64,000 nt of DNA from Chloroflexota bacterium (GCA_019873735.1 JAIOAQ010000008.1:16651-80650), one strand, 5' to 3'; shown: positions 11,389 through 63,042, counted from the first letter of the stretch. Notes: a model not told the origin generated them from the sequence alone. Numbers and translations: made by a program.

Positions 11389-11680
11389 TTTGATGTTCCT
11401 CCTTGAAAGTTTTTCTTTGGCTGGTATGATTATAGCATGGCTGTTCAAACAGAGAATTTAAATCTTCAGGCAATAGCATAGGAAGCATTTTTCACGCAAG
11501 TCTGCGAATAACATGCACAGATGGGCGCAGATTTGGATGCAAGCGGGTTTCTTCAACCTGCGGGAGTGCAGGCGGCGACCAGAATACAAGTTTCGTGAAA
11601 TTTGTGTCATTCGTGGCCAAGAACAACACTGCCCTTGATGGGAAACCCATTGGATTCAAAAATTGAAAACCTGGAGGCGT

Positions 11681-12502: not shown

Positions 12503-12519
12503 GCCAGCCCGGGTGTAGG

Positions 12520-13200: not shown

Positions 13201-13223
13201 GGCACAGCGTTTGAGGCTGCCTT

Positions 13224-13811
13224 ATGCAAAAAATTCTGGAAAAAATCATGTTGGTCCTGATTGGCGCCTTGATGGGGCTGGCTGCCTCCGGTATCCTGTG
13301 GCTGGCAGCCAGTCCGCCGCGCGGTCAGGCAGTGACTTTGCGCCCGGCGCCCACGGCGGTGCCGCTGGCGGTTCAGGTCAGCGGCGCGGTAGTGCGGCCG
13401 GGGGTTTATGAATTGCCGCCGGGCAGCCGGGTTAAGGATGCCATTGATGCTGCCGGAGGCTTTTTGGCAGAGGCCGATACAGGCAAGATCAATCTGGCTG
13501 CTTTGCTTGAGGATGGGCAGGAATTGATCGTCCCAGATGTTTTTGGCAATACTGGCGGGGCGGGCGATGAGGTCATTGCCGAAGAGGACGCAACAGATAC
13601 CGAAACGCCCGATTACCTGATTGACATCAACTATGCTACGGCTGAAGAACTGGAGACGCTGCCGGGGATTGGTCCGACTCTGGCCATGCGCATTGTTCAA
13701 TATAGGGAAGAGCACGGACCTTTTCAGACCATTGAAGATATTATGAATGTCTCAGGGATTGGGCAGGCGACGTTTGAAGCAATCAAGGACTACATTTACG
13801 TCTCTGATTAA
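13224..13811 (+). CDS. comEA: ComEA-like DNA-binding competence protein (SLBB + helix-hairpin-helix)
   Basis: N-terminal TM, SLBB-like segment (VQVSGAVVRPGVYELPPGSRVKDAIDAAGG) and C-terminal HhH (INYATAEELETLPGIGPTLAMRIVQYREEHGPF). Confidence 0.8.
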   Translation: MQKILEKIMLVLIGALMGLAASGILWLAASPPRGQAVTLRPAPTAVPLAVQVSGAVVRPGVYELPPGSRVKDAIDAAGGFLAEADTGKINLAALLEDGQELIVPDVFGNTGGAGDEVIAEEDATDTETPDYLIDINYATAEELETLPGIGPTLAMRIVQYREEHGPFQTIEDIMNVSGIGQATFEAIKDYIYVSD

Positions 13812-13832
13812 ACACAATACCGAGGTGACAAC

Positions 13833-14669
13833 GTGACCATTCATATTCTTACTGACAGCACATCCGATTTAGGGGCCGAAATTCGGCAGGAGTTTGGCGT
13901 AGAGGCGATTCCCCTAACGGTTACGATTGATGGGCAGGCTTACTTAGATGAAATTGAGATTGACCAGGATAAACTTTTTGACCTGGTTGCGCAGACTGGC
14001 GTTTTGCCCAAGACGGCGGCTCCCTCGCTGGGCGAGTTTCAGAAGTTCTTTGACCGGCAGGGTGAAAGTATCTTTATCGGCATTTCTTCCCGCCTGTCTG
14101 CGACCTTGCAGAACGCGATGTTGGCTGCCGAGGGGATGACAAGCGGGCGGGTGCGGGTGATTGACTCGCTGAATCTCTCGACTGGAATCGGCCTGCTGGT
14201 CTTGCGTGCGTCCGAGTTGCGGGATGCTGGAAGATCGGCCGCTGAAATTGAGCAGGATATCGTTGCGTGTGTGCCTAAGGTGCGCACGTCCTTTGTCATT
14301 GATCGTATGGATTATCTGTATAAAGGCGGACGCTGCAACGCCCTCCAGGCGATTGCCGGCAGTGTCTTGAAAATTCACCCTATTATTGAAGTTCAGCCAG
14401 ATGGGACGCTGGGGGTCAAATCTAAGGCGCGTGGAATACGTCAAAAGGGGCTGCAGGCCATGCTGGATGATTTTGCCGCCCATCTGAACGAATTAGATGG
14501 GCATCGTGTATTTGTGACACACACGGCCTGCCCAGAGGACGCCGCATTTCTGAAAGATGAGATTATCCGCCTGGCCGCGCCAGATGATGTCCGTATTACC
14601 CGCGCCGGTAGTGTGATTTCCAGCCATTGTGGACCGGGAACGATCGGAATTCTATATATGGTGAAATGA
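13833..14669 (+). CDS. DegV family fatty-acid-binding protein
   Basis: 278 aa. IHILTDSTSDL start and a family-typical length and pattern. Confidence 0.85.
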   Translation: MTIHILTDSTSDLGAEIRQEFGVEAIPLTVTIDGQAYLDEIEIDQDKLFDLVAQTGVLPKTAAPSLGEFQKFFDRQGESIFIGISSRLSATLQNAMLAAEGMTSGRVRVIDSLNLSTGIGLLVLRASELRDAGRSAAEIEQDIVACVPKVRTSFVIDRMDYLYKGGRCNALQAIAGSVLKIHPIIEVQPDGTLGVKSKARGIRQKGLQAMLDDFAAHLNELDGHRVFVTHTACPEDAAFLKDEIIRLAAPDDVRITRAGSVISSHCGPGTIGILYMVK

Positions 14670-14767: not shown

Positions 14768-15718
14768 TTATTCGTTTGGGCTCCAAATGTCGGTAGGCGG
14801 CTGAGGCGGCTGAATCCAGTTGAGCCAGCCTTCTTTTTTGGCTTTGCGCTCCGGCTCGGGTTCAAAACGCACAAGCAAAAGCGTTGCGCTCAAAATGATC
14901 ACGCCTGCCCATTGGAAGAGTGAGAGATTTTCGCGTAGCCAAAAATGACTGGCGATGATGGTAACCAGCAATTCTGCCAACCCCAAAAGGGCCGTTTGCA
15001 TGCCTCCAAGCCGCTTGACGCCCAAGAAGAGCGAGAGGCGCGACAGGAAGGTGACGAGTGTGAGGCCCGCAATCGGCCACCAGGGGTAGGTCAGAGAGGG
15101 GATGCGGCGGTCAAAGAGAAGGTAGGCAGGGATAACCACCAGACTCATAGAGAGCAGGGTGTAAAAAGTAACGGTGGGTGCAGGGATTTCGTAGAGCACA
15201 CGTTGATTGATTGGCAGGTGAAGCGCGTACAGCAGGGATGCTCCCAGCATCATGGCGATGCCTGCAATGTCTGCTTTGGTATCTTGGGTTTTGGTCAGCA
15301 GCAAAACGGCGACGGTTGCCAGCCCGATTCGGATGAGCGTCAACTTGCTGACAGGCTGTCGGTCGAAGGCCATGCTGATGGCTACGAACAGTGGGTAGAG
15401 CGAGTAAAGCATTTGGCCGATGTTTGCGTTCAGCCGTTCCAGCGCAAGGTAGTATAAAATTGAGCCGGTTCCGTTGATAACACCTGCCAAAGCACAGCCC
15501 AGCAGGCCGAAGGGGAAGATATAGAATAGGCTCCGGCCGCGGAGAGAAAGGACAAACAAAAGCAGCAAACTTGCCAGGAATGTGCGCAGGGCTACTACAG
15601 CAAGGGGCGAGAACCCAAAAAGGATAGCCTGGCGTCCAAATACGGGTGCCAGGCCCAAAAAGAAAGCCGAGGCCAGCGCGGCTTGAATCCCTTGGATTTG
15701 CCCTTTCTTCATTTTCAC
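14768..15718 (-). CDS. EamA/DMT-superfamily transporter
   Basis: 316 aa, about 10 TM segments arranged as two EamA-like halves. Same strand as the ThrC-REC gene and 77 nt downstream of it. Confidence 0.8.
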   Translation of the reverse strand: MKMKKGQIQGIQAALASAFFLGLAPVFGRQAILFGFSPLAVVALRTFLASLLLLFVLSLRGRSLFYIFPFGLLGCALAGVINGTGSILYYLALERLNANIGQMLYSLYPLFVAISMAFDRQPVSKLTLIRIGLATVAVLLLTKTQDTKADIAGIAMMLGASLLYALHLPINQRVLYEIPAPTVTFYTLLSMSLVVIPAYLLFDRRIPSLTYPWWPIAGLTLVTFLSRLSLFLGVKRLGGMQTALLGLAELLVTIIASHFWLRENLSLFQWAGVIILSATLLLVRFEPEPERKAKKEGWLNWIQPPQPPTDIWSPNE

Positions 15719-15795: not shown

Positions 15796-17472
15796 TTATT
15801 TGAGCAAACTGCGTACTTCTTCCAGGAATTCATCGTTCATGAAGTCGCCTTTTTGCAAAAGGGTCTGGATTTGCCCTTCCAGACGGCTTTTTTCTTCGCT
15901 GGTAAGTTCTTTTGCCGTAGAGACAATAACGGGGATGTTGGCCGTTTCCTGGTTGGTCTTCATGGCTTCAATGACTCCGAAACCGTCAATTTCGGGCATC
16001 ATTAAGTCGAGAACGACCAGATCCGGCAATTCGCGGGTGATGACGTCAATGGCTTGCTTGCCGTCTGTTGCCTCGTAGATTGTAAAATTCCCCTGTGATT
16101 GCAGGATGCGGCGAATCAGCCGCCGCGCCTCTGGACTATCATCAACAATGGCTATGCGCGGGAAGCGGTCGGGGGCGACCTGATTGAGGGCGGCCAGCAG
16201 ACCTTCTTGCGGGGTTTCTTCTTTGGCGCGTGAAGGGAGGACAACGCTTCTGGCCCAGTTCTCGCCGAGGATGAATTGCTCGGCTGGCATGGTGTGACCG
16301 GAGCAATTGACAACGACGGTATCAGTCGGTTTGATAACGCCCTGGCGAATTAACTTGAAAAGGCCCGCAAAGGCCACGCCTGCCGCCGGTTCCATGGAGA
16401 TACCTTCCATTTTCGCGATGACGTGCATGGCGCGAAAGGCTTCTTCGTCACTAACGCTCTCGAAGGTCCCTCCAAACTCGTCCACCTGTTTTTTGAGCAA
16501 TTTGTAGGCCCGCCCAGGGTCGCCGGTGGCCAGGGTTTCAATGTGCGTGCGTGGGGAAGCAATGGGGATTGCCGATTCAAGGCCGTTTTTCCATGCTTCT
16601 ACCATGGGCGCACAACCCTCGGCTTGAATGGGCGCAATGGCCGGGATGCGGTCAATCAATCCCATGAGTTTGAGTTCGCGGAAGCCTTTGGCAATGCCAA
16701 TGGGGCCCATCCCGCCACTAATGGCCTGAACATACCAGTCGGGCGCTTTCCAGGTCAGAGGCCTGCCTGATTGCGGGAGTGGGCCAAGCAGAGCCGCCAG
16801 TTGCTCGCTGATCTCGTAGGCGATGGTTTTCATGGCCTCCACCGAGGTGATTGTGCGTGCTCCCATATCCTGATAGAGACCACGTTGTGATGCAAATTCG
16901 GCTGCGACCTGTTTGGTTTGGTCGTAAGAGCCGGTCACTTTGATCACCTGACTGCCATACAATGCAATTTCACGCATTTTTACGGCTGGTACCAGGCTGG
17001 TTACAAAGGCCCATAACTTGATGCCTGCCCGGGCGGCGTAGGCAGAGTAGGCAATGGCAACATTCCCTGTGGAAGCGGCTACCATTTCGGTAATACCGGC
17101 CTCCTTGAGCGCGGCAATGGTGACAGCCGCCTGACGGTCCTTAAAAGAAGTGGTAGGTCCCTGCCTTTCGTCTTTTATGTAAATATTCGGACAGCCAAGC
17201 ATCATCCCCAGGTTAACAGCCTGGATGAGCGGCGTTCCGCCTTCACCCAGTGACAGGCTGGGTTGTGGGTTGCGCACCGGCAGTAATTCTCGATAGCGCC
17301 ATAAATCGAAGGGGCGCGAGGAGATTTGCTCTCCCCAAATCTTGAGGGCAGATTCGTAGTCGTACTCTGCTTCTCGCCACTGACTGTTGCAGCGTGGGCA
17401 ACTGGTGGAGGTGGGAAAGTACGAGGTTGTATGCCCGCAGTCCAGGCATTTGATGGCAAAGGACGGAGACAT
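15796..17472 (-). CDS. Threonine-synthase-like PLP enzyme fused to a C-terminal response-regulator receiver domain
   Basis: 558 aa. N-terminal Cys4 zinc ribbon (CLDCG...CPRC), PLP-lysine motif TTSFKDRQ (K111), ASTGN loop and GGMGP loop. Residues ~438-545 are a REC domain (IVDDSPE, phospho-acceptor context LVVLDLMMPEIDG, VSTAK). Confidence 0.85.
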   Translation of the reverse strand: MSPSFAIKCLDCGHTTSYFPTSTSCPRCNSQWREAEYDYESALKIWGEQISSRPFDLWRYRELLPVRNPQPSLSLGEGGTPLIQAVNLGMMLGCPNIYIKDERQGPTTSFKDRQAAVTIAALKEAGITEMVAASTGNVAIAYSAYAARAGIKLWAFVTSLVPAVKMREIALYGSQVIKVTGSYDQTKQVAAEFASQRGLYQDMGARTITSVEAMKTIAYEISEQLAALLGPLPQSGRPLTWKAPDWYVQAISGGMGPIGIAKGFRELKLMGLIDRIPAIAPIQAEGCAPMVEAWKNGLESAIPIASPRTHIETLATGDPGRAYKLLKKQVDEFGGTFESVSDEEAFRAMHVIAKMEGISMEPAAGVAFAGLFKLIRQGVIKPTDTVVVNCSGHTMPAEQFILGENWARSVVLPSRAKEETPQEGLLAALNQVAPDRFPRIAIVDDSPEARRLIRRILQSQGNFTIYEATDGKQAIDVITRELPDLVVLDLMMPEIDGFGVIEAMKTNQETANIPVIVSTAKELTSEEKSRLEGQIQTLLQKGDFMNDEFLEEVRSLLK

Positions 17473-17541: not shown

Positions 17542-20500
17542 TTATGGGCCTTGAATCCGTCTCAATGCGTTTTCCAGGGCGGATAACAATTCGTCTTCCT
17601 TTAGAAGTCCTTTTTGCAGCAGCCGCTGTCCAAATGCATTTAGTTGTTCGCGTTGTGTGGGTGTCAGATCGCCGCCGGTGACGACCACTACCGGAATTTG
17701 ACGATATTGCTCTTCGGCGCGCAGGCGTTCCAGAATGGCAAAACCATCCAGGTCCTCCATAAACAGATCCAAGACAATGGCATGGGGTGTGGCCGTGGTA
17801 ATGGCTTCCCATCCTTGTTTGCCTCCTTCGGCCAGGATAGGCTTGTACCGTCCGTTCTCCGATAGAATCTTGGCGATCAACCGCAAGTCATCTGCGTCGT
17901 CGTCAATAACCAGGACCTCGCGAATGCTCCCGTCGCTGTTCAGACGGTTGAGAGCATTCAGCAAATCGTCTTCCAGGATAGGCTTGACCAGATAGTCGGC
18001 TGCGCCCAGGTTGAACCCTTTTTCCTCGTCTTCGATGATGCTGCAGATAACTACCGGGATGTCGCGCGTTTCCGGGTTGGCTTTGAGGTCTTGTAAAACC
18101 TGCCAGCCATCGTATCCGGGCATCATAATGTCCAGCGTGATGGCAAAGGGTTTTAACTGCCGGGCGCGTTCGGCAGCCTTGGTGGGATCGGTCAACGAAA
18201 TGACCTGATAGCCTTGGGGTTGAAGATAACGTTCGTACAGGCTGACAACCTGAGGGTCATCGTCAATGGCCAGCACGACTCGGTTTTCTTTGGACGCGCC
18301 GGCATCGTCTTTACCGCGGTAAACAGGAATTGTAAAGTAGAATGTGCTGCCTTTTCCAACCGAACTGTGCAGACCAATCCGACCACCGTGCATTTGCACC
18401 AGATGTTGAGAGATGGACAGGCCCAGACCAGAACCGCCGGTTTTGCGGGTTGGCGACGAGTCCACCTGGGAGAAGGGCTGGAACAATTTGGCCTGATCTT
18501 CGGGGGCGATGCCAGGGCCCGAATCGGTGACGCTGATCATGATTTCCGGGTGGCCAGATGGCCCGGCTTTTACACCGGCCTCCAGGGTAATCGTTCCTTG
18601 TTCGGTGAATTTTGCCGCGTTAGAGAGCAGGTTAAGCAGCACCTGGCGAATGCGCATTGCGTCTGCGCGGACGGGAGGCAACTCTTCGGGGACAATTTTC
18701 TTCAGCGTAATTGGTTTGTCTTTGATCAGCCCGGTGATGGTAGAGAGGACACTGTTGATGGTGTCGTTGAGATTCACCTCATCGAAGGTCAATTCCATCT
18801 TACCGGCCTCAATACGAGACAGGTCGAGGATATCGTTGATCAGCCCAAGCAGATGTTGGCCTGAATTGTAGATGGCGGTCAGGTCTTGTTGTTGGAGTTC
18901 CGAAATCGGACCGTCGATTCCTTTCAGGATGACGCGCGAGAAGCCAATGATCGAGTTGAGAGGTGTCCGCAGTTCGTGACTCATATTTGCCAGGAACTGG
19001 CTCTTCAGGCGGTCCACTTCCCGCATTTCCTTGACGGCCTGTTGGGCCAGTTCGTAGGAGCGCGCATTGTCAATGGCCACAGCAATCTGGTCTGCCAGGA
19101 TTTGCAAAACAGCCGCGTTGTCGGGTGTGAAGGCGTCTACCTCGGTGGACTGGATATCCAACGCGCCAATCACGCGGTTGCCAACGCGCAGGGGGATTCC
19201 GGCCTCTGCCCGCGTTTCTGGCAGAAGGGGATTGGGGCGGTGGAGAGGGTCAAGGGCAGTGTTGTTGATGATCACGGCTTCGCCGGTCGAAGTCACCATG
19301 CCGACAACGGACTTTGAACCGACGGTGATGCTGTGTTGCCGCCTTTTCATTTCTTCACCGGCGTCGCCGGTGGCCTCTTTGAGGACAGCATTGAAGCCAG
19401 TTTCCTCAACCGTGAAAATGGCGGCGTGGTAAAAGCCGAATCTTTCGCGGATGAGATTCACGGCGCGTTTGAAGAGCAGGCTCAGGTCGAGGGTGGATGT
19501 GATCAGGCGGCCAACCTCAGCGGCGGTAGCCAGATATTCGTTTTGCCGGCGTATGGCTTCCTCGGCCCGTTTACGTTCCGTGATGTCTCGCGAAACCCAG
19601 AATACCTGGTCGTCGCTTAGTTTGGTCACCGTAGCGTAAAACCAATACCCGTTTCCACCGATTTCCAGCGGATACTCGATACTGGTGGTCTCGCCGGTGG
19701 TTAAGGTTTTTCGGATGGCCTGCATGAAGGGTTCATGCGTCTCTGCCGGAAGCACCTCTTGAATGGTTTTCCCGACCATATCTTCCGGTGGTTTGTATAA
19801 CCGGTTGGGGTTGGTTGGCGCAACTCTCACATAGCGGCCGTCTTTATCGTACACAATGATGACGTCGGTCATGGCGCTGAAAAGCGCTCGCAATTCGGAC
19901 TCCGATTTACTGAGTGCCTGTACGGCTTGTTGACGGCCCAGAGCAGTTACAATTGCCTCTCCGGCGAACTTTAGCAGGTTTTGTTCCTCTTCGTTCCAGG
20001 TTCTGGGGGCCTGGACGGCGTCAAGTCCCAGGAAACCGATCAGATTGCCGCGTTCCATCAGCGGTGAGCAGATAATGGATTGAATGTTCTCGCGTTCAAA
20101 CTCTATTCGCTCTGCCCGGCCTTCTTTGGGAATATCGGCCACTTTTGGAAAGTAGAAGGTCTGTCCTTTGCGTAACTTGTCAATCAAAAAAGGAAACGTG
20201 TTGATGGGAATGTTTTGCAGATTCTCTATTTGATGGTCAGTATTTGGAGAGCACCATTCGTTGGCGCAACTCATCAATTCACCGCGCGGGTCAATCAGGA
20301 AAACGTATGCACGGTCTACGCCGGAGAAATTCCCTAATCGTTCGAGTACCTGGTCAATCGCGGCAGAGACCTGGATGGGGTCAACGCTGGCAAAGATTGT
20401 AGAGATTTCGCTGGTGAGACGCTCGCGTTCGGCCCGCTGGCGCATTTGCTCAAACAGCAAGGCATTTTGGAGCGCGATGGCGGCCTGGTTAGCAAAAGCC

Positions 20501-22368
20501 ATCAACAGATTGCTGTCATGTTCGTCGTAAACGTTTTCTTCTTTTAGGTTCTGAACGGCCATCAGGCCAAGGAACTCATCGCCGATCATTAGAGGCACCC
20601 CCAGCCAGCTTTTGGGGACCTCGCCAATGATGGTAATGTGGTTCTCCTTGAGCCACTGGGCCACATTTTTTCTCAACAGCAAGGGTTTTCGGGTTTTGAA
20701 AATGTATCCTGTCATGCCCTCGTCAGCACTCAGGGAGACAATTGTCCGGTCGACTTCGGATTCGGTGACGTTAACCGGGTAATTGACCCGATGTGTGCTT
20801 TTGTCATAGATGCCGATGAAGAAATTTGTGGCATCCATCAACCGGGCAACGCCTTGGTAGGTCTCATTCAACACGTCTTGGGCGTCTAACTGTGAACTCA
20901 ATGCCCGCCCCAGGTCGTTCAAGACGCTCATTTCCTCGGCGCGCAGCCGGGTTTGTTCAAAAAGGCGGGCGTTTTGAATGCCAATGGCTACCGTATCGGC
21001 AAAAGATTCCAGTAGTTTTAAGTCGTCCTGGCTGTAGGCGTTGGGCTGATAACTTTGGGCAGAAAGCACGCCGATGATTTCACCGCTGAAGCGGAGCGGG
21101 GTTGCAATAACAGAACGCGGCGATCTGTATTTTTTTTCTGCATCGGCAACGCGCTTGAAGGGCAAAGGCTCTTTTTCAAGATCATTTGCAATGTATGAAT
21201 GACCAAGGCTGAGGACATAGCCGGTGAAACCGGTTTTGACATCATGCTGTTGGGGTTCGACACGGACGCCATTGTCAATGTCATAGGCATTAACAAATAC
21301 ATCTGTCCCAGGGTCGTGGAGGCTGATGAGAAAGGCATCGGCAGGCAAGATGCGGCCGATGATACGATGGGCCGTGCTGTAAACGTCTTCCAGATTCAGG
21401 TTTTGGCTGATTAAGCGACTTAATTCAACCAGAGTGTTTAACTCTTGCGCGCGGCGCTGTTCGGCCTCAAACAGGCGCGCATTCTCCAGTGAGATAGCCG
21501 CCTGGCTGGCGATTGTGCGCAGCAAGTCAAATTGATGTTCGTCATAGAGCCTGGTTTTTTCTGTGCTTTGAAGCACAATTGCCCCGATGACTCTTTCGCC
21601 AATTGCCAACGGGACGCCCATCCAACACAAAGCAGGCCGGTTATTGCCGACGAGAATGATCTCCAGACCCAATTCTTTGACGGTGTCTGTAACGTTTTCG
21701 GCAATGAAGAGTGGTTTGCGCGTGCGGAGGATGTAATCGGTCAGACCTTTGCCCAGTTGCCGTGCAGGCGGGGAGTAGCGCACGCCATGTGATGTTGCAT
21801 AGGGAAATTCGACTCGATTCTCTTTTTCATTGTAGAGTGCAATGAAAAAGTCCTCTGCTTTCATCAACTGACCTGTGTATTTATGAATGGTTTGACAGGC
21901 AGCGTTGATATCCAATTCTGCAGACAATTCGCGCCCCATTTCGTTCAAGATGGCAAGTTCATTGGCCTGGCGTTGGGTTTGCTGGAAAAGGCGCGCATTT
22001 TCAAGGGCAAGTGAGAGTTGGTCGGCTACTTGCTTGACAAGCAGTTTTTCCTCTTCGTCCCATTGGCGGTCTGCATCTTTATCAATAATTTGCAGGGTGG
22101 CCCAGTTTTGAGCGTCAAAGGGGAAGGCAAGTGTCAATTGTGCTCCATCGCCGGCTTTTGTCTTTGTATCGGTGAGGACCTGGCTTGAGGGCGCCGGGAC
22201 GGGTCTGGTTTTCGACTCCTGTCCTGTTTGCTGGCGCACAGGCGCAGCCGCTTCCCCGCTGACGGGTAGACTTTTGGTGCCTTTTCGGCTCGCTTTGGGT
22301 TTGGTTTCTTCGGGTGTAAGGCCGTCAAATAGATTCTTAAGCCGGCTGTTCACTTGTTTCTTTGACAT
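17542..22368 (-). CDS. Giant cytoplasmic hybrid histidine kinase: basic disordered N-terminus, mini-GAF, 4 GAF, PAS, sensor-family GAF, HisKA, HATPase_c, REC, REC
   Basis: 1608 aa. H-box MSHELRTPLNSI (His1131), N/G boxes (LLSNAAKF, DSGPGI, GGSGLGLSIS), REC1 (TLDIMMPGYDG) and REC2 (VLDLFMEDLDG). ENARLFE-terminated GAF repeats recur. No TM segment was seen. Confidence 0.9.
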   Translation of the reverse strand: MSKKQVNSRLKNLFDGLTPEETKPKASRKGTKSLPVSGEAAAPVRQQTGQESKTRPVPAPSSQVLTDTKTKAGDGAQLTLAFPFDAQNWATLQIIDKDADRQWDEEEKLLVKQVADQLSLALENARLFQQTQRQANELAILNEMGRELSAELDINAACQTIHKYTGQLMKAEDFFIALYNEKENRVEFPYATSHGVRYSPPARQLGKGLTDYILRTRKPLFIAENVTDTVKELGLEIILVGNNRPALCWMGVPLAIGERVIGAIVLQSTEKTRLYDEHQFDLLRTIASQAAISLENARLFEAEQRRAQELNTLVELSRLISQNLNLEDVYSTAHRIIGRILPADAFLISLHDPGTDVFVNAYDIDNGVRVEPQQHDVKTGFTGYVLSLGHSYIANDLEKEPLPFKRVADAEKKYRSPRSVIATPLRFSGEIIGVLSAQSYQPNAYSQDDLKLLESFADTVAIGIQNARLFEQTRLRAEEMSVLNDLGRALSSQLDAQDVLNETYQGVARLMDATNFFIGIYDKSTHRVNYPVNVTESEVDRTIVSLSADEGMTGYIFKTRKPLLLRKNVAQWLKENHITIIGEVPKSWLGVPLMIGDEFLGLMAVQNLKEENVYDEHDSNLLMAFANQAAIALQNALLFEQMRQRAERERLTSEISTIFASVDPIQVSAAIDQVLERLGNFSGVDRAYVFLIDPRGELMSCANEWCSPNTDHQIENLQNIPINTFPFLIDKLRKGQTFYFPKVADIPKEGRAERIEFERENIQSIICSPLMERGNLIGFLGLDAVQAPRTWNEEEQNLLKFAGEAIVTALGRQQAVQALSKSESELRALFSAMTDVIIVYDKDGRYVRVAPTNPNRLYKPPEDMVGKTIQEVLPAETHEPFMQAIRKTLTTGETTSIEYPLEIGGNGYWFYATVTKLSDDQVFWVSRDITERKRAEEAIRRQNEYLATAAEVGRLITSTLDLSLLFKRAVNLIRERFGFYHAAIFTVEETGFNAVLKEATGDAGEEMKRRQHSITVGSKSVVGMVTSTGEAVIINNTALDPLHRPNPLLPETRAEAGIPLRVGNRVIGALDIQSTEVDAFTPDNAAVLQILADQIAVAIDNARSYELAQQAVKEMREVDRLKSQFLANMSHELRTPLNSIIGFSRVILKGIDGPISELQQQDLTAIYNSGQHLLGLINDILDLSRIEAGKMELTFDEVNLNDTINSVLSTITGLIKDKPITLKKIVPEELPPVRADAMRIRQVLLNLLSNAAKFTEQGTITLEAGVKAGPSGHPEIMISVTDSGPGIAPEDQAKLFQPFSQVDSSPTRKTGGSGLGLSISQHLVQMHGGRIGLHSSVGKGSTFYFTIPVYRGKDDAGASKENRVVLAIDDDPQVVSLYERYLQPQGYQVISLTDPTKAAERARQLKPFAITLDIMMPGYDGWQVLQDLKANPETRDIPVVICSIIEDEEKGFNLGAADYLVKPILEDDLLNALNRLNSDGSIREVLVIDDDADDLRLIAKILSENGRYKPILAEGGKQGWEAITTATPHAIVLDLFMEDLDGFAILERLRAEEQYRQIPVVVVTGGDLTPTQREQLNAFGQRLLQKGLLKEDELLSALENALRRIQGP

Positions 22369-23122
22369 ATTCCATTAACTCCTGGGCCAAAACACGATAT
22401 TGTTGCGAACCACGACTACCCGGTCTGTATTCAGTGATAGGCAGGCCTGAGATAGGACTTTCACGCAATTTGGTGTCGATTTCAATAACTGTGTTGAACA
22501 ATCCTTCTCCAAACGTAGCGCGCAATTGCTCATAAATGTTTCTATGGGTACGGTTGCGCCGGTCAAGCAATGTCACCAGGATGCGGTATGCAAGGCCGGG
22601 GTTGTTATCTTCGCGCACGCGCCGGACAATGGACATCATGCTGCGCAGGGCATACGCCGAGAAGTATTCAGCCTGGGTGGGGATAATGAGCAAGTCTGCG
22701 GCGCTCAAAGCATTCAGGGTAATTGTGCCCAGGGCTGGCGGGCAGTCAAACAGAATGTAATCGTAGGGTAGTTCTCCGGCAGATTCCAGGGCGTGTTTCA
22801 GGGCGGTCAGGTGATCCACCCGCATGGGCAAGTAATGTTCGGCCGTCTCTATTTTTGAACCGGATGGGAGGATCGACAGATTCTCGATGCCGGTCTTTTG
22901 ACAGGCATCTGAAACAGGAAATGCCTCAAGCAGCACATCGCCCGAGGTGTGCTGTTCCTTTTCTGGATCAATCCCTACTGCCAGGCTTAGATTAGCCTGG
23001 GGGTCAAGATCGCAGAGCAAGACTCTCTGCCCACTTTCGGCCAATGCTGCACCGAGCGAGACGGTGGTGGTCGTTTTGGCGACCCCGCCTTTTTCGTTTG
23101 AGATTGCAATTTTATATGCCAT
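22337..23122 (-). CDS. Orphan ParA/Soj/MinD-superfamily ATPase
   Basis: 261 aa. Deviant Walker A ISNEKGGVAKTTT, Walker A' LLCDLDPQ and Walker B YILFDCPP. No parB lies nearby. The stop overlaps the kinase start by 32 nt. Confidence 0.9.
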   Translation of the reverse strand: MAYKIAISNEKGGVAKTTTTVSLGAALAESGQRVLLCDLDPQANLSLAVGIDPEKEQHTSGDVLLEAFPVSDACQKTGIENLSILPSGSKIETAEHYLPMRVDHLTALKHALESAGELPYDYILFDCPPALGTITLNALSAADLLIIPTQAEYFSAYALRSMMSIVRRVREDNNPGLAYRILVTLLDRRNRTHRNIYEQLRATFGEGLFNTVIEIDTKLRESPISGLPITEYRPGSRGSQQYRVLAQELMEYVKETSEQPA

Positions 23123-23149: not shown

Positions 23150-26035
23150 CTATTTGCCTTTTTCTCTGGTTTGCGTTTCAGGTGGAGGGGCATAGGGAAG
23201 AATCTCCACATGGCTGGCTCCCAGCACCTGACGCAGTTCCGCCAGCGCTGTCTGGATCATGCTCTCTGGGTCGGTTTTGCTGCGGATCTTGGTGGTGATT
23301 TCTGAAACGGTGCGTTCACGCAGGGCGCGTCGGGTTGTTTCCTCAAACAGTCGGGCGTTTTCAAGTGCCAGCGCTAACCGGTCGGAGATGGAAGACAAAA
23401 GGGCAATTTCATCATCATCCCAGCGGCGATTGGGATCTTGCGAACGAATGTTCAAGACGCCGATGACTTGCTCGCGCAGACGGATGGGAATTGCCAAAGC
23501 CGGCGTTTCCTCGTTTTCTTTGGCTTTTGAGCCTTTGGGATAAATGGTTACAAACTTGCCACTTGCAAGCGCTTGCATGATTTCTGCCCGCTGAACCGTC
23601 TGGTTGACAGGCCTGCCGCCGCCGATGGTTTTGTGGTAGCCCAGATATTTTCTGGTTGCAAGACTCTTCCAGGATTGAGCCAGATACTGCCTTTGCAGTG
23701 CCTGGGCTTCCAAAAGGGCGCGCTGTAAATCGGTAACCAGCCTCGAATTGTGGATGGCAATGGCAATTTGATCGGCAAGGATGCTGAGGGTTTTCAGGTT
23801 TTCTTCTGAAAAAGCATTTGCTTCTGTGCTTTGAACATCCAAAACGCCGATGATTTCATTGCCGATTTGCAAGGGCAGAGCGGCCTCTGAACGGGTTTCT
23901 GGCAAGTCGGGGTTATCAAAATAGACAGCATCTTGTCCAACGTCAAGGGCAATGCGGGCTTTTCCGGTTTCGGCAACGTTGCCAACAATGCCCACCTGTC
24001 CTATTTTCAATTTGTGCTGCCGTTCCAACATACGTTTTCCGCCGGGGCTGTTAGCGGCTTGCAACACAGCATACTCGCGGTTTTCGTCAATCAAGAAGAT
24101 GCCAACGTGATAGAAAGAGAATTTTTCGCTGACCAGTGATGTGACCAGTGGGAGCAAGGCTTCTGTTTGTTGCTGCGATGCAGCCACCTTTGCGACTTCG
24201 CTGACCAACTCTAACTCCCGCGCCCGCTCCGCGCTCCTGTGCATGGCCTGCTCCAGTTCTGCCGTGCGTTCGGCGACGCGCTGTTCCAGGCCAGACAGCA
24301 TTTGGCGGATTTGGGCTGTCAGTTCATTGAATGTGGTCGCCAGGTAGCCAACTTCATCATTGCTGGCAACTTTGGCCTGCGTTTCCAGATTCCCGACCTT
24401 GAATTGCTCAACGGTGTGCGTCAGGTCCAGGATTGGGCTGGTCAGTTGACGCGCAACATGGATTGCCATGAAAGAGACGACTGCAGTGATAAGAACGCCA
24501 AGCAGGTTAATGGTGCGAACCCGCTGCTGCACAAGCGCAATTGTCTCTGCTTTTGCCTGATAGACGATTGCTCTCCAGGGCAGGTTGTCAACTGCTTCTC
24601 TCTTGTTGGGAGAAAAGATTGGGGCTGCACTCAATATGCTATCGCCTTGCTCCAGGTTGACCTCAACATAACTTTCCTTTTCAAGATTTTCCAGCGCCTG
24701 AACGAGTTCTGGCGGTGACAGGTGAATTCCATCCAGGGCTAAATGCTTCGTTGGATTGCCCAAGAAGACGTATTCTGCCCTGCCCGTTTCACCAATCGGT
24801 TGGGAAAGCAGTTGTTGCAGTTCGGCAATAGTATAGCCAGTCTGCAATACGCCCATAATATCCCCTGTTGCCCGATCGCGGATGGGGACGGCAATGCGGA
24901 AAATGTACATTCCGATGCTTTCGTCATATTCGGGAGTACCGATAAAGATGTCTCCTGCCCCGTTATTGTAGGCCTTTTGCCACCATTCCTCGTCTGCCTG
25001 GTAATAGTCAGAAGTTCGATTTGTTGCCGCTACCAGGCCGCCGAGGACATCGGTGACGATCATTTCGACATGACCGGGGAAAGACTGTTGGAAGTTCCTC
25101 AACTGTGATGAAGCGATATTGTATAAGCGCCCGTTGACAAGAGGCTGTTCGTTATTGTTAGCCGCATCTGCCTGACGCCATATCGCATCAAAGCGATTGA
25201 TTTTCTCCATCTCCTTTTGCAAATCGGGGTCGTGCGACCGATTTGCGCGCGCAACTTGCCATTGAATATCTGCATTTGTGCTGAGCGCCTGAATGGCGTC
25301 TATTTGCTGGGCCAGGATGCTTCCCATAGCCTGTCCGCGTGACTCGGCTATAGGCTGCAAACTCTTGCCGGCGTTTTCGGTCAAGACGTTTGTCAGCGTC
25401 AGGGATGTGATCTGACCAAAGGCAATGGAAATCACGGCTGCAATGCTTACATACGCGATTAAAATTTTGTTGACGAATTGTAGTTTTCCAAACTGCGTAA
25501 TGATCAGAAAGAAAAAGACGAGAATTGTAAGCAGAATCAGGCCTGCACTGAAGCGTTCAACAATGGGGACAAGGATGCGCTCGTAAGGCACCAGGATATC
25601 TATCAGGCCAATGGCCAGGCTGGCCAATATTCCGGCAAAGATGACGCGCACCAGCGAACGTTGAGGCAGGGTTTGAATGCCAATCAGGACTGTCAGCAGT
25701 AAAGTGGTGATTCCTAATGCGCTTCCAATGTTGGCGATCAAGGCGGCTACACTTAACGCAGCGTAGAATACAATGCCAATCAGGGTCCAGGCCGCCAGGG
25801 CGTGATCGCCTTTCTGATTTCTACGAATGACCCAAAAATTTGCAGCGATGACGATGGTGAACGTTGCGATCAGCAGGAAATACCGCCAGTCTCTTTCTGA
25901 GAAGAGAAGGTATATGTAGAACGCTATTGGAATGACCGCCAGAGCCGACGTTAATAGTGCCAGGCGGTGAGTGTTTTGCTGCTGTGTGCTGGCTTGCTCA
26001 TCTTCATACGTACTTAGATTGACCGTTTGTGTCAT
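23150..26035 (-). CDS. Output-less membrane sensor paralog 1 (polytopic N-terminus + Cache-like + HAMP + signalling helix + GAF + mini-GAF + conserved tail)
   Basis: 961 aa. About 6 N-terminal TM segments, then an extracytoplasmic Cache-like segment and a further TM. HAMP is followed by LEQRVAERTAELE. The GAF carries FYHVGIFLID ... NPDLPETRSEAALPL ... GVLDVQST. I see no kinase, cyclase, MCP or phosphatase motif. Confidence 0.8.
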   Translation of the reverse strand: MTQTVNLSTYEDEQASTQQQNTHRLALLTSALAVIPIAFYIYLLFSERDWRYFLLIATFTIVIAANFWVIRRNQKGDHALAAWTLIGIVFYAALSVAALIANIGSALGITTLLLTVLIGIQTLPQRSLVRVIFAGILASLAIGLIDILVPYERILVPIVERFSAGLILLTILVFFFLIITQFGKLQFVNKILIAYVSIAAVISIAFGQITSLTLTNVLTENAGKSLQPIAESRGQAMGSILAQQIDAIQALSTNADIQWQVARANRSHDPDLQKEMEKINRFDAIWRQADAANNNEQPLVNGRLYNIASSQLRNFQQSFPGHVEMIVTDVLGGLVAATNRTSDYYQADEEWWQKAYNNGAGDIFIGTPEYDESIGMYIFRIAVPIRDRATGDIMGVLQTGYTIAELQQLLSQPIGETGRAEYVFLGNPTKHLALDGIHLSPPELVQALENLEKESYVEVNLEQGDSILSAAPIFSPNKREAVDNLPWRAIVYQAKAETIALVQQRVRTINLLGVLITAVVSFMAIHVARQLTSPILDLTHTVEQFKVGNLETQAKVASNDEVGYLATTFNELTAQIRQMLSGLEQRVAERTAELEQAMHRSAERARELELVSEVAKVAASQQQTEALLPLVTSLVSEKFSFYHVGIFLIDENREYAVLQAANSPGGKRMLERQHKLKIGQVGIVGNVAETGKARIALDVGQDAVYFDNPDLPETRSEAALPLQIGNEIIGVLDVQSTEANAFSEENLKTLSILADQIAIAIHNSRLVTDLQRALLEAQALQRQYLAQSWKSLATRKYLGYHKTIGGGRPVNQTVQRAEIMQALASGKFVTIYPKGSKAKENEETPALAIPIRLREQVIGVLNIRSQDPNRRWDDDEIALLSSISDRLALALENARLFEETTRRALRERTVSEITTKIRSKTDPESMIQTALAELRQVLGASHVEILPYAPPPETQTREKGK

Positions 26036-26071
26036 TGTTTATTACCTCGTGCCAGACTGCAAAGACAAACG

Positions 26072-28231
26072 TTACTCCGACGGGGGCGCAGGCTGTAATT
26101 GGATTAATACTTCTGAATCTTGAACGATTTTGCTGATTTCTTCGGCTGCAGTTTGCAAGATGCTGTCCATTTGCATTGAACTGCCCAGTTTGGCTGTCAG
26201 GTCGGCAATAATTCGGTCCTGCTTTGAGCGGCGGGTTGTCTCATCCAAGAGGCGTGCATTTTCAATGGCCAGAGCAACGCGGTCTGCAACGGCCTGAGCC
26301 ACATCTACTTCATCCTGATCCCAGCGGCGTCTGCCGGGGATGCGCACGTTAAGGACACCGATAGACTCGCCTCGCAGTTTCAACGGAATCGCCAGCACGG
26401 CGGACCCATCGGCTTCAATTTCTTGAACTGGTGCCCCGGCATGCAGGGCTTTTTGAATTGCCGGTAGTTTGAGCGGGGCTTCCAGCGGCGTTGCACCGGT
26501 GATGGAGTAATGATAGCCAAGTTGCTTGCTTGTCTTGAGTACCCGGCTCCATTTTTCCTGCAAGTACTGTTGTTGCAGGGCCTGTGCTTCATTCAGGGCT
26601 CGATTTGTTTCTTCAAAGAGGCGGGCGTTTTCGATTGCGATGGCCACCTGGTCGGCCAGAATCTCCAGCGTCTCGATATCGTCTTGTGAGAAGGCGTTTG
26701 GTCTTGTGCTTTGGACATCTAGGGCGCCGATGATTCGGTTGCCTATTTGAAGAGGCAAGGCAATTTCTGAACGCGTGTCAGGCAAATCGGGGTTGTTGAA
26801 GAAGACGGCATCCTCGCCAACGTCGAGAGCGATACGGCTCTTACCTGAACCGGTTACAAAACCGACAATGCCTGTCTGACCAACTTTGAGGCGGTGCCCG
26901 CGTGCCAGCATCCTTTGCCCACCGATGCTGTTGGAGGCACTGAGAATGGCATTTTCTCCGCTGGGGTCGAGGAGGAAAATACCAACATGGTAGTGCCCCA
27001 AGGCTTCACTGATTTGCCTGGTGATTTCCAGCAGCAGGGGCTTGAGTTCGCGAATCGAGGAAATTGCCCGGTTGACATCAGCAATGGCTTTGAGCCGAAT
27101 GGCTTTCTCGGCGTTATACTGATTTGCGGCTTCAAGTTCTGCTGTGCGCTCGGCAACCCGTTGTTCGAGAGAACCGACCAATTCTTGAATTTGATCGGTC
27201 ATTGTGTTGAATGTCCTGCCGAGGTTGCCTAACTCATCTTCAGATGTTATCTCGGCGCGGATGGCGAAATTCCCTGCCTGGATTGCCTGGACGGCGGCCT
27301 GTAGTTTGCCCATGGGCGTGATAATCCGCCGGAGCGTGAATGCTATGGCCGATGAGGCTTGCCAAACAACGAGGACCAATGCGACTAAAAGACCCAGCGT
27401 GAGCAGGCCAAAAGCGCGCAGGGCCTCGCTAACGGCCTGTTCCACGATGACATACCAGGACGTCCCGGGTACTGTTGCAGCAGCAGCGATGACGTAGTTT
27501 TGCTGGATGCTGCGGAAGATGTTGAGCGCCGATCTCTCCATGTCTGCAGGGGTTGAACCGGTCACCTGAGAGTACGATGTGCCACTGCGGACAACTTGCA
27601 AATCGCGATAGGCCAGGATTTGTCCGTTGTTATCCACGATGTAAGCCTGTCCCGTCTTGCCGATGCGCAAACTGGTCACCGGGTTCCATAGGGCGGTAAA
27701 GTCCGTGCGGACAAGCAAGGTGCCGGCAAAGTTTTCGGAACTATCTTTGACCGCCACTGCAAGGTCAACGAATGGTACGCCAAACAGGCTGTAGTCCACT
27801 GGCCCAAGGTACATCTGGCCCTGTTTTACGGTTTCCAGCCAGGGCTGACTAGTGACCACAGGCGCAGATTCTCCCACGCGGCGTCGCTGGGCAATCACAT
27901 TTCCTTGGGGGGTGATAAGCAGGGCCTCAAAAATGATGGGCTGACGCTCTAACAGGAAGCGTAAGACCTGCTCTTTGTCATTGGTGAATGTGAGTGCCGT
28001 GCTGGTTGCGTGCAGGTCGGCTTCGATAACACTGAGTGACTTTGTGAAAGCCAGCGCGGCAGCGACGGCTTCGCCGTTAAGTTCTCTGGTAACACCTCGA
28101 AGCGATGAATTCAGGCCAACGACGATTTCCGTCAAGAGGCCCGCAATGGCTATCAGGCTGAGCAGTGTAACGCGCAGGGACAATTGTCTCCTGAGTGTTC
28201 CACGATTTCTTTGAGAGGATGATCTATTCAT
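26072..28231 (-). CDS. Output-less membrane sensor paralog 2 (TM - double-Cache-like - TM - HAMP - signalling helix - GAF - mini-GAF - tail)
   Basis: 719 aa. Two TM segments bracket a ~250-aa periplasmic domain. Cytoplasmic motifs: HAMP, SLEQRVAERTAELE, HYHVGIFLLD, DVGEDAVFFNNPDLPDTRSEIALPL, GALDVQST, ENARLFEE. Confidence 0.8.
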   Translation of the reverse strand: MNRSSSQRNRGTLRRQLSLRVTLLSLIAIAGLLTEIVVGLNSSLRGVTRELNGEAVAAALAFTKSLSVIEADLHATSTALTFTNDKEQVLRFLLERQPIIFEALLITPQGNVIAQRRRVGESAPVVTSQPWLETVKQGQMYLGPVDYSLFGVPFVDLAVAVKDSSENFAGTLLVRTDFTALWNPVTSLRIGKTGQAYIVDNNGQILAYRDLQVVRSGTSYSQVTGSTPADMERSALNIFRSIQQNYVIAAAATVPGTSWYVIVEQAVSEALRAFGLLTLGLLVALVLVVWQASSAIAFTLRRIITPMGKLQAAVQAIQAGNFAIRAEITSEDELGNLGRTFNTMTDQIQELVGSLEQRVAERTAELEAANQYNAEKAIRLKAIADVNRAISSIRELKPLLLEITRQISEALGHYHVGIFLLDPSGENAILSASNSIGGQRMLARGHRLKVGQTGIVGFVTGSGKSRIALDVGEDAVFFNNPDLPDTRSEIALPLQIGNRIIGALDVQSTRPNAFSQDDIETLEILADQVAIAIENARLFEETNRALNEAQALQQQYLQEKWSRVLKTSKQLGYHYSITGATPLEAPLKLPAIQKALHAGAPVQEIEADGSAVLAIPLKLRGESIGVLNVRIPGRRRWDQDEVDVAQAVADRVALAIENARLLDETTRRSKQDRIIADLTAKLGSSMQMDSILQTAAEEISKIVQDSEVLIQLQPAPPSE

Positions 28232-28283
28232 TCCAGGTGCTCCAAAAGAGTTTGTACCGCGGCGGCTTAAGATACTTTGCAGG

Positions 28284-29477
28284 TTACTTGAGCGTCTCTA
28301 CGAAGGTCCAGGCGCCATCTACAACTTTCATGCCGCCAATGGCTGAGGGAGAAATATCACCCTGAGGGTCAAAATGCCAGGTCCCAAAAATGCCGCTGTA
28401 TTCACCCAAATTTTGCATCGAGGCAAAGACGGCTTCACGGGTAGGCTGCTCGGCGCGTCCAATAGCATAAAGAAGTACGTTAACAGCCTCATATATGGCA
28501 CCATCGTAAGAAGACGGGGTTTTTCCGTATTCGTTCTGATAACTTCTCACGAAGTCTCTGGCGGCAGGAGTATCCAGGTTGGCGGGAGGAATGGCCACCA
28601 CCGTGCCGTAGATATTCTCTAGTTGTTCTTTCTCTAACAGGGCAAAGATATCGTCTACCGCTATCCCATCTGGCCCCATTAATGGGATGGTGGCATTGGC
28701 CTGGCGGATGGCCCGAACAATATATTCGGCATTTGAGCCAACGCTGCCGGCCAGAAAGATGATATCAGGGCTGGCGTCCAGTGCTTTTGTAACCAGGGCC
28801 TCTGCTGTGGCAGTGGGCAGATCTCCTTCGGTCGTGAACCCTGATTTGCCAACGATCCCAAGACCAATGTCTTTGGCGGTGATTTCAAACACGCCGGCTA
28901 CGCCTTTGCCGTATACGTCCTCGCCGTAGATGATGTAAACTTTTTGGTAGCCCATTTTTTGAATCCAGCGCGCGGCAGCCGCGCCTTGTACCTCGTCGCT
29001 GGCTACCGTCCGGAAGTAAGTACGTTGGCCGGTGGGGTAGTAAATCCCCGGTTCGCCCAGTTCGTAGCCTGGCTTGGTCAGCCCCGGCCAGGTATTGCTG
29101 CCTGAAATTGTGGTCACCGAGGCGCGGTTTAAGATGGGGATGATTTCTTTGGCTGTGCGGCTGGAATCTGGACCAACCCAACCGACAACGCTTGGGTCTT
29201 GGGCTACTTTTTCTGCATTTTGGATGACAAGCGGTGTAGAAATACTCTCGCTATTGGGCTCTGTTTCGCTCAGGACCATCAACTCTACATTGTACGGACC
29301 GGCTTTTCCGTTCGCCTTCTTTATAGCCATTTCAACTGCATGCAAACTGTCTTGTCCGTAGGTGGTTCCCAGCGGCACGCTGAACGCGATTTTCACATTG
29401 CCGGAGGGCTTATTAACACAGCCTGATATCAGCAGGCCGATAATAATGGTAATGACGAGCAGTTTTTTTATGGTCAT
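28284..29477 (-). CDS. Lipoprotein, type-1 periplasmic solute-binding protein (LivJ / branched-chain amino-acid-binding-like)
   Basis: 397 aa. Signal peptide with lipobox LISGC and a Peripla_BP_6-like pattern. No ABC permease or ATPase gene occurs anywhere in the window. Confidence 0.75.
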   Translation of the reverse strand: MTIKKLLVITIIIGLLISGCVNKPSGNVKIAFSVPLGTTYGQDSLHAVEMAIKKANGKAGPYNVELMVLSETEPNSESISTPLVIQNAEKVAQDPSVVGWVGPDSSRTAKEIIPILNRASVTTISGSNTWPGLTKPGYELGEPGIYYPTGQRTYFRTVASDEVQGAAAARWIQKMGYQKVYIIYGEDVYGKGVAGVFEITAKDIGLGIVGKSGFTTEGDLPTATAEALVTKALDASPDIIFLAGSVGSNAEYIVRAIRQANATIPLMGPDGIAVDDIFALLEKEQLENIYGTVVAIPPANLDTPAARDFVRSYQNEYGKTPSSYDGAIYEAVNVLLYAIGRAEQPTREAVFASMQNLGEYSGIFGTWHFDPQGDISPSAIGGMKVVDGAWTFVETLK

Positions 29478-29508
29478 TTTTTTCTCCTAACTCAGATAAT
29501 GTAAGGTG

Positions 29509-31746: not shown

Positions 31747-31766
31747 GGAGTGTCCTCTCAGACAAA

Positions 31767-32783: not shown

Positions 32784-32848
32784 TATCTTTTACTCCTCTG
32801 TGATCAGGTTAAGAAAGAATGGTTATCGAGGACATTTTCTCTGCTGGA

Positions 32849-34777: not shown

Positions 34778-34780
34778 CTC

Positions 34781-36838: not shown

Positions 36839-36842
36839 TGCA

Positions 36843-38426: not shown

Positions 38427-38432
38427 TCCGAA

Positions 38433-42350: not shown

Positions 42351-42357
42351 GGGAAAC

Positions 42358-60417: not shown

Positions 60418-60444
60418 AAGGGTCGCGCTTCAAGCGCGGCCCTT
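60418..60444. terminator. Hairpin between convergent ferredoxin and SEDS-PBP genes
   Basis: AAGGGTCGCGC ttcaa GCGCGGCCCTT, an 11-bp stem with one G-U pair, followed by ATTGATT. It overlaps the stop codon of the minus-strand gene. Confidence 0.5.
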
Positions 60445-63034: not shown

Positions 63035-63042
63035 CAGGTTTG

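Follow-up and report, generated by a model that had tools for sequence, protein, structure and literature searches.

Bacteria generally rely on ATPases of the ParA/MinD family to position large cargos (chromosomes, plasmids, carboxysomes, flagella, chemotaxis arrays and the divisome), and many of these ATPases are orphans whose cargo is not known. TlpT, the partner of the ParA-like ATPase PpfA in Rhodobacter sphaeroides, reportedly works through its N-terminal region, in an account given by Roberts et al. in 2012. The activating peptide of E. coli MinE has the sequence K19-E20-R21-L22-Q23-I24-I25. R21 has a role in this MinD activation peptide (PMC12462528), and partner proteins of ParA/MinD ATPases interact via a charged, disordered N-terminus (PMC10241942). 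Here we describe a parA-like gene in a 64,000-nucleotide stretch of DNA from a Chloroflexota bacterium (GCA_019873735.1, JAIOAQ010000008.1:16651-80650; the whole stretch is called the window, and positions count from its first letter). The gene overlaps a downstream gene for a soluble hybrid histidine kinase, and comparison across relatives assigns to the ATPase a putative cargo, namely this kinase, which carries what appears to be a ParB-like peptide.

In Myxococcus xanthus, the ParB motif L11-x-R13-x-L15-x2-L18-I19 forms a short helix whose hydrophobic residues surround a central R13; the helix binds a ParA-dimer pocket made up of V116, L150, L152, L155, L187 and L192, and R13 contacts ParA residues Y81, E82, D110 and E117 (PMC12462528). 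Y81 and E117 of this Arg-binding cluster are invariant in ParA homologues, and M. xanthus ParA R238E is a DNA-binding-deficient mutant (PMC12462528). Non-specific DNA binding by Soj, PpfA and PomZ has been linked to Soj R189 and R218 and their equivalents (PMC7229837). Among systems that serve signalling, the Halothiobacillus genes Hn0722 and Hn0723 overlap (PMC10241942), and ParP links its ATPase to a receptor-kinase assembly (PMC5706961).

Conservation of the parA-kinase gene pair

Relatives were collected by scanning one genome per species, which returned at least 527 stretches with a close ParA. The best 80 of these (66-80% identity to the window ParA) and five further loci were examined; they represent at least 80 species-level genomes from at least two Anaerolineales families, and take in Candidatus Villigracilis (Villigracilaceae) and metagenome-assembled genomes (MAGs) of Anaerolineaceae. 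Counts of synteny and overlap refer to the 83 loci with enough sequence 3' of parA, joined by three more divergent lineages to give 86; domains were called with Pfam. Homologues of the ParA number in the thousands, and the best 120 are 67-93% identical and 261-270 residues long, the named ones all being from Anaerolineales or Chloroflexota. Two loci with the typical Anaerolineales cluster (L011 and L014) lie on contigs recorded as Bacteroidota and Syntrophothermus MAGs, probably through mis-binning.

In the window, the sensors, parA, the kinase, a PALP-REC protein and an EamA transporter are all encoded on the minus strand (Table 1). The stop codon of the preceding sensor (23150-23152) is separated from the parA ATG at 23122 by 27 nucleotides (nt), and the kinase gene begins 32 nt inside the 3' end of parA; both distances, first given in a reading of the window made without comparative data (the sequence-only reading), are borne out by the coordinates. 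The adjacency that this reading had singled out is likewise kept in relatives, pairing and overlap being found in the three divergent lineages and in all 83 loci, where the kinase open reading frame (ORF) begins within the parA 3' end in every case. The overlap is 35 nt long in 48 of these loci, 32 nt in 21, 38 nt in 12, and 41 nt and 47 nt in one each; in the three divergent variants (MSNKKIKQKIDRLFAEL, MSNNKKIRSRLNQIFGDI and MSNKRIKKRLDQIFDDL) the ParA 3' end overlaps the start by 11, 32 and 32 nt, respectively. The gap between sensor and parA has a median of 16 nt across loci. Every sufficiently long locus displays the same order, with several kinase-less HAMP-GAF sensors followed by parA, a GAF/PAS-HisKA-HATPase-REC kinase, PALP-REC and EamA, and each contains exactly one ParA-like gene.

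The kinase start at 22368 is real, since an in-frame stop codon lies three codons 5' of this ATG and makes it the first possible start, a Shine-Dalgarno-like AGGAG precedes it, and in every orthologue conservation of the peptide begins at this Met. AGGAG falls in the codons of a conserved ParA "QEL", and its location inside parA is a candidate signal for translational coupling of the kinase. Promoter and terminator counts equalled those of shuffled sequence, so that internal signals are neither supported nor opposed.

The N-terminal peptide of the kinase

Alignment of 80 unique kinase orthologues revealed an N-terminal motif with the consensus M-[PS]-K-K-(K)-x3-[KN]-R-[LI]-x2-[LI]-F-x2-[IVL]-x-P-E, in which K3, the Arg and the Phe never vary; K4 is kept in 77 of the 80 sequences and the Glu in 79. 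Conservation collapses past residue ~24, where column entropy rises to about 3 bits. The tether that follows has a median length of 50 residues (range 40-78), a composition of 16% Pro, 17% Lys plus Arg and 31% Ser, Thr or Ala, and a net charge of about +4; sequence conservation is absent from it across the 80 orthologues. AlphaFold2, run on kinase residues 1-310 with an alignment of 57 sequences, predicted a helix at residues 3-14 (predicted local distance difference test score, pLDDT, of 84 and 72 for the first two ten-residue blocks) and disorder over residues 21-73 (pLDDT <50), followed by a beta-hairpin, a 46-residue helix and a GAF domain. The hydrophobic moment of the core helix is 0.69, and the helix contains about four acidic residues and carries a net charge of 0, or +3 when the Lys stretch is included.

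Motif column 14 holds the end of the parA stop codon in 71 of the 80 loci; the N-terminal half of the motif is therefore dual-coded, with frozen codons, and the second half lies outside parA. The stop (TAA or TGA; 22337-22339) straddles the Leu codon of the motif (CTT) and the codon after it (kinase codons 10-11), so that almost every orthologue is limited to D, E, N or K directly after R-L. Codon use is constrained within the overlap. Outside it, synonymous codons vary at conserved residues, with six codons used for Leu, three for Pro, TTC in 46 and TTT in 34 orthologues for Phe, and GAA in 51 and GAG in 28 for Glu; selection therefore acts on the protein. On the evidence of the aligned orthologues, the kinase bears a 24-residue N-terminal motif under protein-level selection at the end of a variable tether of about 50 residues.

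The motif, as a profile of 32 positions, was searched against 1.84 billion representative proteins (E ≤ 0.001) and matched 74 of them, in 73 of which the match begins at residues 1-4. The eight long matches are all GAF/PAS proteins, and six of the eight contain HisKA and/or HATPase. Within the loci the motif occurs once per locus.

The ParA protein and its partner site

The window ParA gave full-length matches to the structures of M. xanthus ParA (8RAY, 4e-43), T. thermophilus Soj (1WCV, 8.5e-43), 6IUB (1e-34) and MinD (1ION, 1.6e-22), and by these sequence matches it fits the ATP-sandwich dimer fold of ParA/Soj/MinD structures. Pfam CbiA was also matched, at 2.9e-20. It did not reach the NCBIfam equivalog cut-offs for ParA_partition, RepA, SopA, BcsQ or MinD, the best scores being 97 bits against a cut-off of 180 (ParA_partition), 93 against 158 (BcsQ) and 86 against 202 (archaeal MinD).

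For residue-level comparison, 83 family members were aligned with M. xanthus ParA (8RAY) and with the Soj proteins of T. thermophilus and B. subtilis. K11, K16, D40/N44 of Walker A' and D126 of Walker B are invariant in the family. R189 sits in a family-invariant and family-specific basic stretch (LLDRRNRTHRNI), and position 218 is an invariant Lys, basic yet not Arg. Judged by this alignment, ParA keeps all catalytic residues and both residues responsible for non-specific DNA binding in Soj/ParA. A MinD-type C-terminal membrane-targeting helix was not found in ParA; the C-terminus (QELMEYVKETSEQPA) is acidic and hydrophilic, is conserved as such, and contains no hydrophobic segment.

The positions that bind ParB have been remodelled. 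At V116/L150/L152/L155/L187/L192 of the M. xanthus pocket the family has Q, L, A, one of L, K, Q or T, R, and one of S, D or N, and the Arg-binding cluster Y81/E82/D110/E117 is replaced by A or S, N, R, and F or Y. Among 18 ParB-site positions, 28% keep the residue of chromosomal ParAs, compared with 54% of all columns; of the eight site positions at which the three chromosomal ParAs agree, two are kept, compared with 67% overall. The replacements E92, Q96, A133, Y157, M162 and R168 are 90-100% conserved within the family. Identity within the family has a median of 72%, whereas chromosomal ParAs drawn from three phyla share 50-57% identity with one another and 36-40% with the Anaerolineales family. 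With a ParB site that is remodelled yet conserved in the family, and with low identities to chromosomal ParAs, the protein has the look expected of a paralogue re-specified for a different, family-specific partner. The intact deviant Walker A and Walker A'/B motifs described in the sequence-only reading are thus present throughout the family, and the Soj-like ParA that it had considered as a counter-indication is at odds with these identities and with the replaced pocket and Arg cluster.

Search for ParB and parS

Searches for parB and parS covered the window and 8-10 kb on either side in 88 loci. No parS site within three mismatches occurs in the 64-kb window and no ParB-box motif in its six frames; tblastn with Spo0J gave no match in 1.28 Mb of window and loci; and neither parB nor parS was found within 8-10 kb in any of the 88 loci. 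The early remark that parB, parS and plasmid genes are missing nearby therefore holds in the window, and a parB/parS partner close to the compared loci, a possibility for which that reading had allowed, is not seen over 8-10 kb in relatives.

The rest of the window consists of housekeeping genes, and its DNA repeats are solely coding repeats of GAF paralogues. A plasmid origin was rejected on account of the housekeeping genes that surround the cluster. An origin as a defence system was also rejected, as PADLOC gave only weak matches at the level of P-loops and receivers (E about 1e-5, 22-23 bits).

Kinase body, sensors and likely output genes

A scan for transmembrane (TM) segments detected no TM-like segment in the 1608-residue kinase. 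The seven sensors of the window (23150-42461), in contrast to the soluble kinase, are all membrane proteins, and no kinase, cyclase or other output domain was found in any of them; within the conserved cluster of about 28 kb, these kinase-less HAMP-GAF sensors must communicate with a separate kinase. They are arranged in tandem and consist of a dCache or multi-pass TM part, HAMP, GAF, a small GAF-like domain and a C-terminal helical hairpin. The sensing regions of the seven paralogues are unrelated (<10% identity), while HAMP, GAF1 and a C-terminal module are common to all, GAF1 being 45-65% identical among them and the C-terminal module 30-40%. The notion that conservation peaks at the sensor tip, as it does in methyl-accepting chemotaxis proteins (MCPs), was rejected on these values.

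AlphaFold2 modelling of the last 372 residues of the 961-residue sensor (pLDDT 91) gave a signalling helix, GAF1, a long helix, a small GAF-like domain, a 45-residue helix and a 16-residue helix. Over its last ~100 residues (23153-23450) this sensor is colinear with kinase residues 80-179 in BLASTP (33% identity, E 2e-14), and the models of the sensor tail and of the kinase N-terminal region agree on a common module. Each sensor ends exactly where the first complete GAF of the kinase goes on. This common hairpin-and-long-helix module is a candidate element for sensor-kinase docking, as suggested by the homology, which may reflect either docking or the trace of an ancestral gene split. Complementation of a split GAF domain by sensor tail and kinase N-terminus was considered and found unsupported, the hairpin and long helix being all that is common to the two; neither fragment needs the other, because the small GAF2-like domain of the sensor is complete, as is the next GAF of the kinase.

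The ThrC-like enzyme contains an N-terminal Zn ribbon and an SFKDR lysine motif, and its best NCBIfam match, threonine synthase, is below cut-off. The synteny of PALP-REC and EamA with the parA-kinase pair holds in essentially all of the 80 species loci and suggests an output in metabolism or export, and the receiver-fused enzyme is the likely phosphorylation target and output of the kinase.

Most relatives (L001, L004, L013 and others) encode, 3' of EamA, a divergent OmpR-type response regulator, a REC-HK and a GAF-HK protein. In place of those regulators the window has genes for a D-aminopeptidase, a CAAX protease, a ComEA-like protein and DegV (11663-14669, plus strand). Elsewhere in the window, a single ORF of 899 residues (60443-63142, minus strand) combines an FtsW/RodA (SEDS) domain with a penicillin-binding transpeptidase domain, and a 679-residue ORF (4718-6757, minus strand) without a Pfam match at E ≤ 1e-5 lies between alcohol-dehydrogenase-like and acyl-CoA carboxylase genes.

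Table 1. Features of the parA-kinase locus and its neighbours (window coordinates)
Feature	Coordinates	Strand	Basis
parA-like gene, 261 aa, tight Anaerolineales-specific ParA/MinD subfamily	22337..23122	-	Pfam AAA_31 3.7e-49
Deviant Walker A NEKGGVAKTT (signature K11, catalytic K16)	23069..23098	-	sequence; invariant 83/83
R189, equivalent of DNA-binding B. subtilis Soj R189 / C. crescentus ParA R195	22556..22558	-	alignment, 83/83 Arg
K218, equivalent of DNA-binding Soj R218 / M. xanthus ParA R238	22469..22471	-	alignment, 83/83 Lys
Shine-Dalgarno-like AGGAG within parA, 10 nt 5' of kinase ATG	22379..22383	-	sequence
Dual-coding overlap, 32 nt: parA C-terminal tail and stop / kinase codons 1-11	22337..22368	-	sequence
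Kinase residues 1-24 (MSKKQVNSRLKNLFDGLTPEETKP): conserved motif, predicted amphipathic helix; candidate ParA-docking/activating peptide	22297..22368	-	
Kinase residues 25-75: flexible tether, mildly basic, Pro/Ser/Thr/Ala-rich	22144..22296	-	pLDDT <50 for 21-73
Kinase residues 77-168: beta-hairpin, 46-aa helix, short helix; homologous to sensor C-terminal module	21865..22140	-	
Soluble hybrid histidine kinase, 1608 aa: peptide, tether, 5 GAF, PAS, HisKA, HATPase, 2 receivers	17542..22368	-	Pfam
Last membrane sensor, 961 aa: multi-pass TM, dCache, HAMP, GAF, small GAF-like, C-terminal helical hairpin	23150..26035	-	Pfam, TM scan, AlphaFold2
Six further kinase-less HAMP-GAF membrane sensors	26072-28231, 29509-31746, 32849-34777, 34781-36838, 36843-38426, 38433-42461	-	
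Two periplasmic binding proteins amid the sensors	28284-29477, 31767-32783	-	
ThrC-like pyridoxal-phosphate (PLP) enzyme fused to C-terminal receiver	15796..17472	-	Pfam PALP + Response_reg
EamA-family transporter, last conserved cluster gene	14768..15718	-	

A model for ParA-dependent positioning of the kinase

The best reading of the locus is that the kinase serves as both adaptor and cargo in a ParA/partner module. We hold it probable, though well short of certain, that the cluster encodes a dedicated ParA/MinD-type positioning module whose partner is the histidine kinase from the overlapping downstream gene, and this suggests that filamentous Anaerolineales position a two-component signalling complex in the cell in the manner that other bacteria use for chromosomes or chemotaxis arrays. 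Physical binding, stimulation of the ATPase and positioning of the kinase by ParA are what we infer from the comparative sequence data. The hydrophobic residues of the kinase consensus I7-x-K9-R10-L11-x2-L14-F15 are spaced i, i+4, i+7 and i+8, the same as in M. xanthus ParB. In the proposed mechanism, ParA-ATP dimers would sit on the nucleoid, and the kinase, presumably a dimer, would offer two tethered N-terminal helices that dock on the two symmetric edge sites of the ParA dimer and stimulate ATP hydrolysis, much as ParB, MinE, McdB and TlpT act on their ATPases. The ensuing ParA gradient would tether the kinase and distribute it along the nucleoid of filamentous cells; the upstream kinase-less HAMP-GAF sensors would presumably be distributed along with it via the common helical docking-type module, and the kinase would signal to the receiver-fused ThrC-like enzyme, beside the EamA exporter.

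Positioning of the kinase by this ParA had been proposed in the sequence-only reading, with a low-complexity N-terminus of ~77 residues as the adaptor. The comparative tests run here support the proposal but narrow the candidate adaptor to residues 1-24: the Pro-rich, basic and unconserved character belongs to the tether (residues 25-75), whereas residues 1-24 form a strictly conserved motif. That the kinase N-terminus is a ParA-partner peptide agrees with its predicted features: the helix is short and amphipathic, presents a hydrophobic face and an invariant Arg, and is joined to a flexible tether. No paper on a ParA paired with a histidine kinase, or on the Anaerolineae cluster, was found in the literature library searched.

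Several observations weigh against such positioning. Conservation of the first ~11 codons of the kinase is confounded by dual coding with parA, and the mutual information between ParA and the peptide has as its top pairs the overlapping codons (ParA 253-259/peptide 2-9) and lineage splits. The helix is amphipathic to a degree at which membrane binding may occur, and Heliquest-type values do not discriminate, those of ParB, MinE and MinD peptides overlapping. Measured against the hydrophobic residues, the conserved Arg comes one residue further on than it does in ParB, and the canonical acidic Arg-binding cluster is missing from the aligned ParA family. Since the sensors are in the membrane, a nucleoid-tethered kinase would have to bridge membrane and nucleoid; ParA may instead keep the kinase away from the membrane sensors.

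The linkage and peptide evidence would also serve for a ParA that is a regulatory switch and no motor, clamping two kinase peptides or sequestering the kinase on DNA away from the sensors and thereby gating kinase activity or sensor-kinase assembly, as Soj does with DnaA or FlhG with FlhF/FliG. Clamping could be transmitted, as the peptide is tethered directly to the long signalling helix and the GAF array, and the combination of membrane sensors with an apparently DNA-binding ParA fits sequestration. A switch is nonetheless unlikely in our view: the DNA-binding residues and the full catalytic machinery are kept, as in gradient-forming positioning ParAs, a flexible and unconserved tether of 50 residues is a poor conveyor of conformational signals, and literature searches gave no precedent of a ParA regulating a histidine kinase. 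It is less likely still that the kinase N-terminus acts without ParA, as a membrane-targeting helix directed to the sensors or as a basic, nucleoid-binding tail like that of FrzCD, and that ParA has another partner, for example the sensor C-termini. The hydrophobic moment and the charge with the Lys stretch are comparable to those of MinD membrane-targeting sequences, the tether has a positive net charge, and the positively charged N-terminal tail of FrzCD does bind the nucleoid directly (PMC5716589). However, the acidic residues and zero net charge of the core helix are atypical of a lipid- or DNA-binding segment, and strict conservation that includes hydrophobic and acidic positions points to a specific protein partner and not to electrostatics. 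The motif-bearing gene overlaps parA in 86 of 86 loci, and the remodelled, family-conserved partner site of ParA fits a family-specific peptide partner.

An ordinary chromosomal Soj/ParA, with its ParB and parS elsewhere and only an incidental place in the signalling cluster, would explain why the nearest solved structures are chromosomal ParA/Soj proteins and why the DNA-binding residues are kept. We regard this as very improbable, given that identity to chromosomal ParAs falls below what these share across phyla, that the ParB pocket and the Y81/E117 Arg-binding cluster are replaced, that no ParB/parS was found in the 1.28 Mb of loci and window, and that parA is embedded in a signalling cluster of overlapping or tightly spaced genes in every genome examined.

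Positioning of the kinase by ParA can be extended, tentatively and with doubt, to an assembly resembling a chemoreceptor array but built from non-chemotaxis parts, distributed by ParA with the kinase peptide as a ParB-like adaptor and with the PALP enzyme and EamA as output. Up to seven or more HAMP-GAF transducers might dock through the hairpin-and-long-helix module onto one kinase, and the assembly would be spread or partitioned by ParA along the nucleoid in multicellular filaments. Phosphorylation would then control the ThrC-like PLP enzyme and EamA, yielding a metabolite or a secreted signal derived from an amino acid, not motility.

Should the kinase be the partner of this ParA, the range of ParA-positioned cargos would reach ordinary two-component signalling, and this would be the first ParA system with a two-component histidine kinase as its direct partner. 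It would bring spatially organised signalling to the little-studied but abundant filamentous Anaerolineales of sludge, sediments and groundwater. The system would be compact, consisting of a 261-residue ATPase and a 24-residue peptide with an invariant Arg and an LxxLF face, and would offer a natural case of rewired partner specificity, in which other conserved residues have taken the place of the ParB pocket.

Comparison with known systems

The locus resembles PpfA-TlpT of R. sphaeroides in having an orphan ParA-like ATPase within a signalling operon without ParB/parS, a partner, putative in the present locus, that is itself a signalling protein, and the nucleoid as the likely matrix, via arginines homologous to those of Soj (PMC7229837, PMC10241942). 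It differs in that the putative partner is a hybrid histidine kinase where TlpT is a chemoreceptor, the receptors are HAMP-GAF proteins, and the hosts are filamentous Chloroflexota. CheA, CheW, CheB, CheR and MCP signalling domains were not found by Pfam in the cluster across the loci, which therefore lacks the che-operon context of PpfA and ParC. With ParC-ParP of Vibrio and Halothiobacillus the locus has in common an ATPase with an overlapping or adjacent partner gene in a signalling cluster, and a partner that would, like ParP, connect the ATPase with receptors and kinase. ParP, however, is a CheW-like adaptor and no kinase, and its arrays are anchored to the polar landmark HubP; there is no CheW-like protein in the Anaerolineales cluster.

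The likeness to ParA(Soj)-ParB(Spo0J)-parS lies in the fold, the deviant Walker A, the catalytic residues and both DNA-binding basic residues of the ATPase, and in a putative partner with a predicted short N-terminal helix, a hydrophobic face and a key Arg, presumably dimeric and thus presenting two peptides. Here, by contrast, the loci lack ParB and parS, the ParB pocket and Arg cluster are replaced, identity is 36-40%, and the register of the Arg is shifted by +1. The kinase consensus K-R-L-D-K-L-F also recalls MinE, where a basic residue is followed by Leu and by a hydrophobic residue three positions on. Unlike MinD, the ParA described here lacks the C-terminal membrane-targeting helix, and it matches ParA/Soj (1e-43) far better than MinD (1e-22). 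Finally, in FrzCD of M. xanthus, also a signalling protein of the cytoplasm, a positively charged N-terminal tail serves to place a signalling complex on the nucleoid (PMC5716589). FrzCD binds DNA directly, without a ParA, whereas the Anaerolineales cluster encodes a dedicated ParA and a kinase with a specific, conserved motif in place of a generic basic tail.

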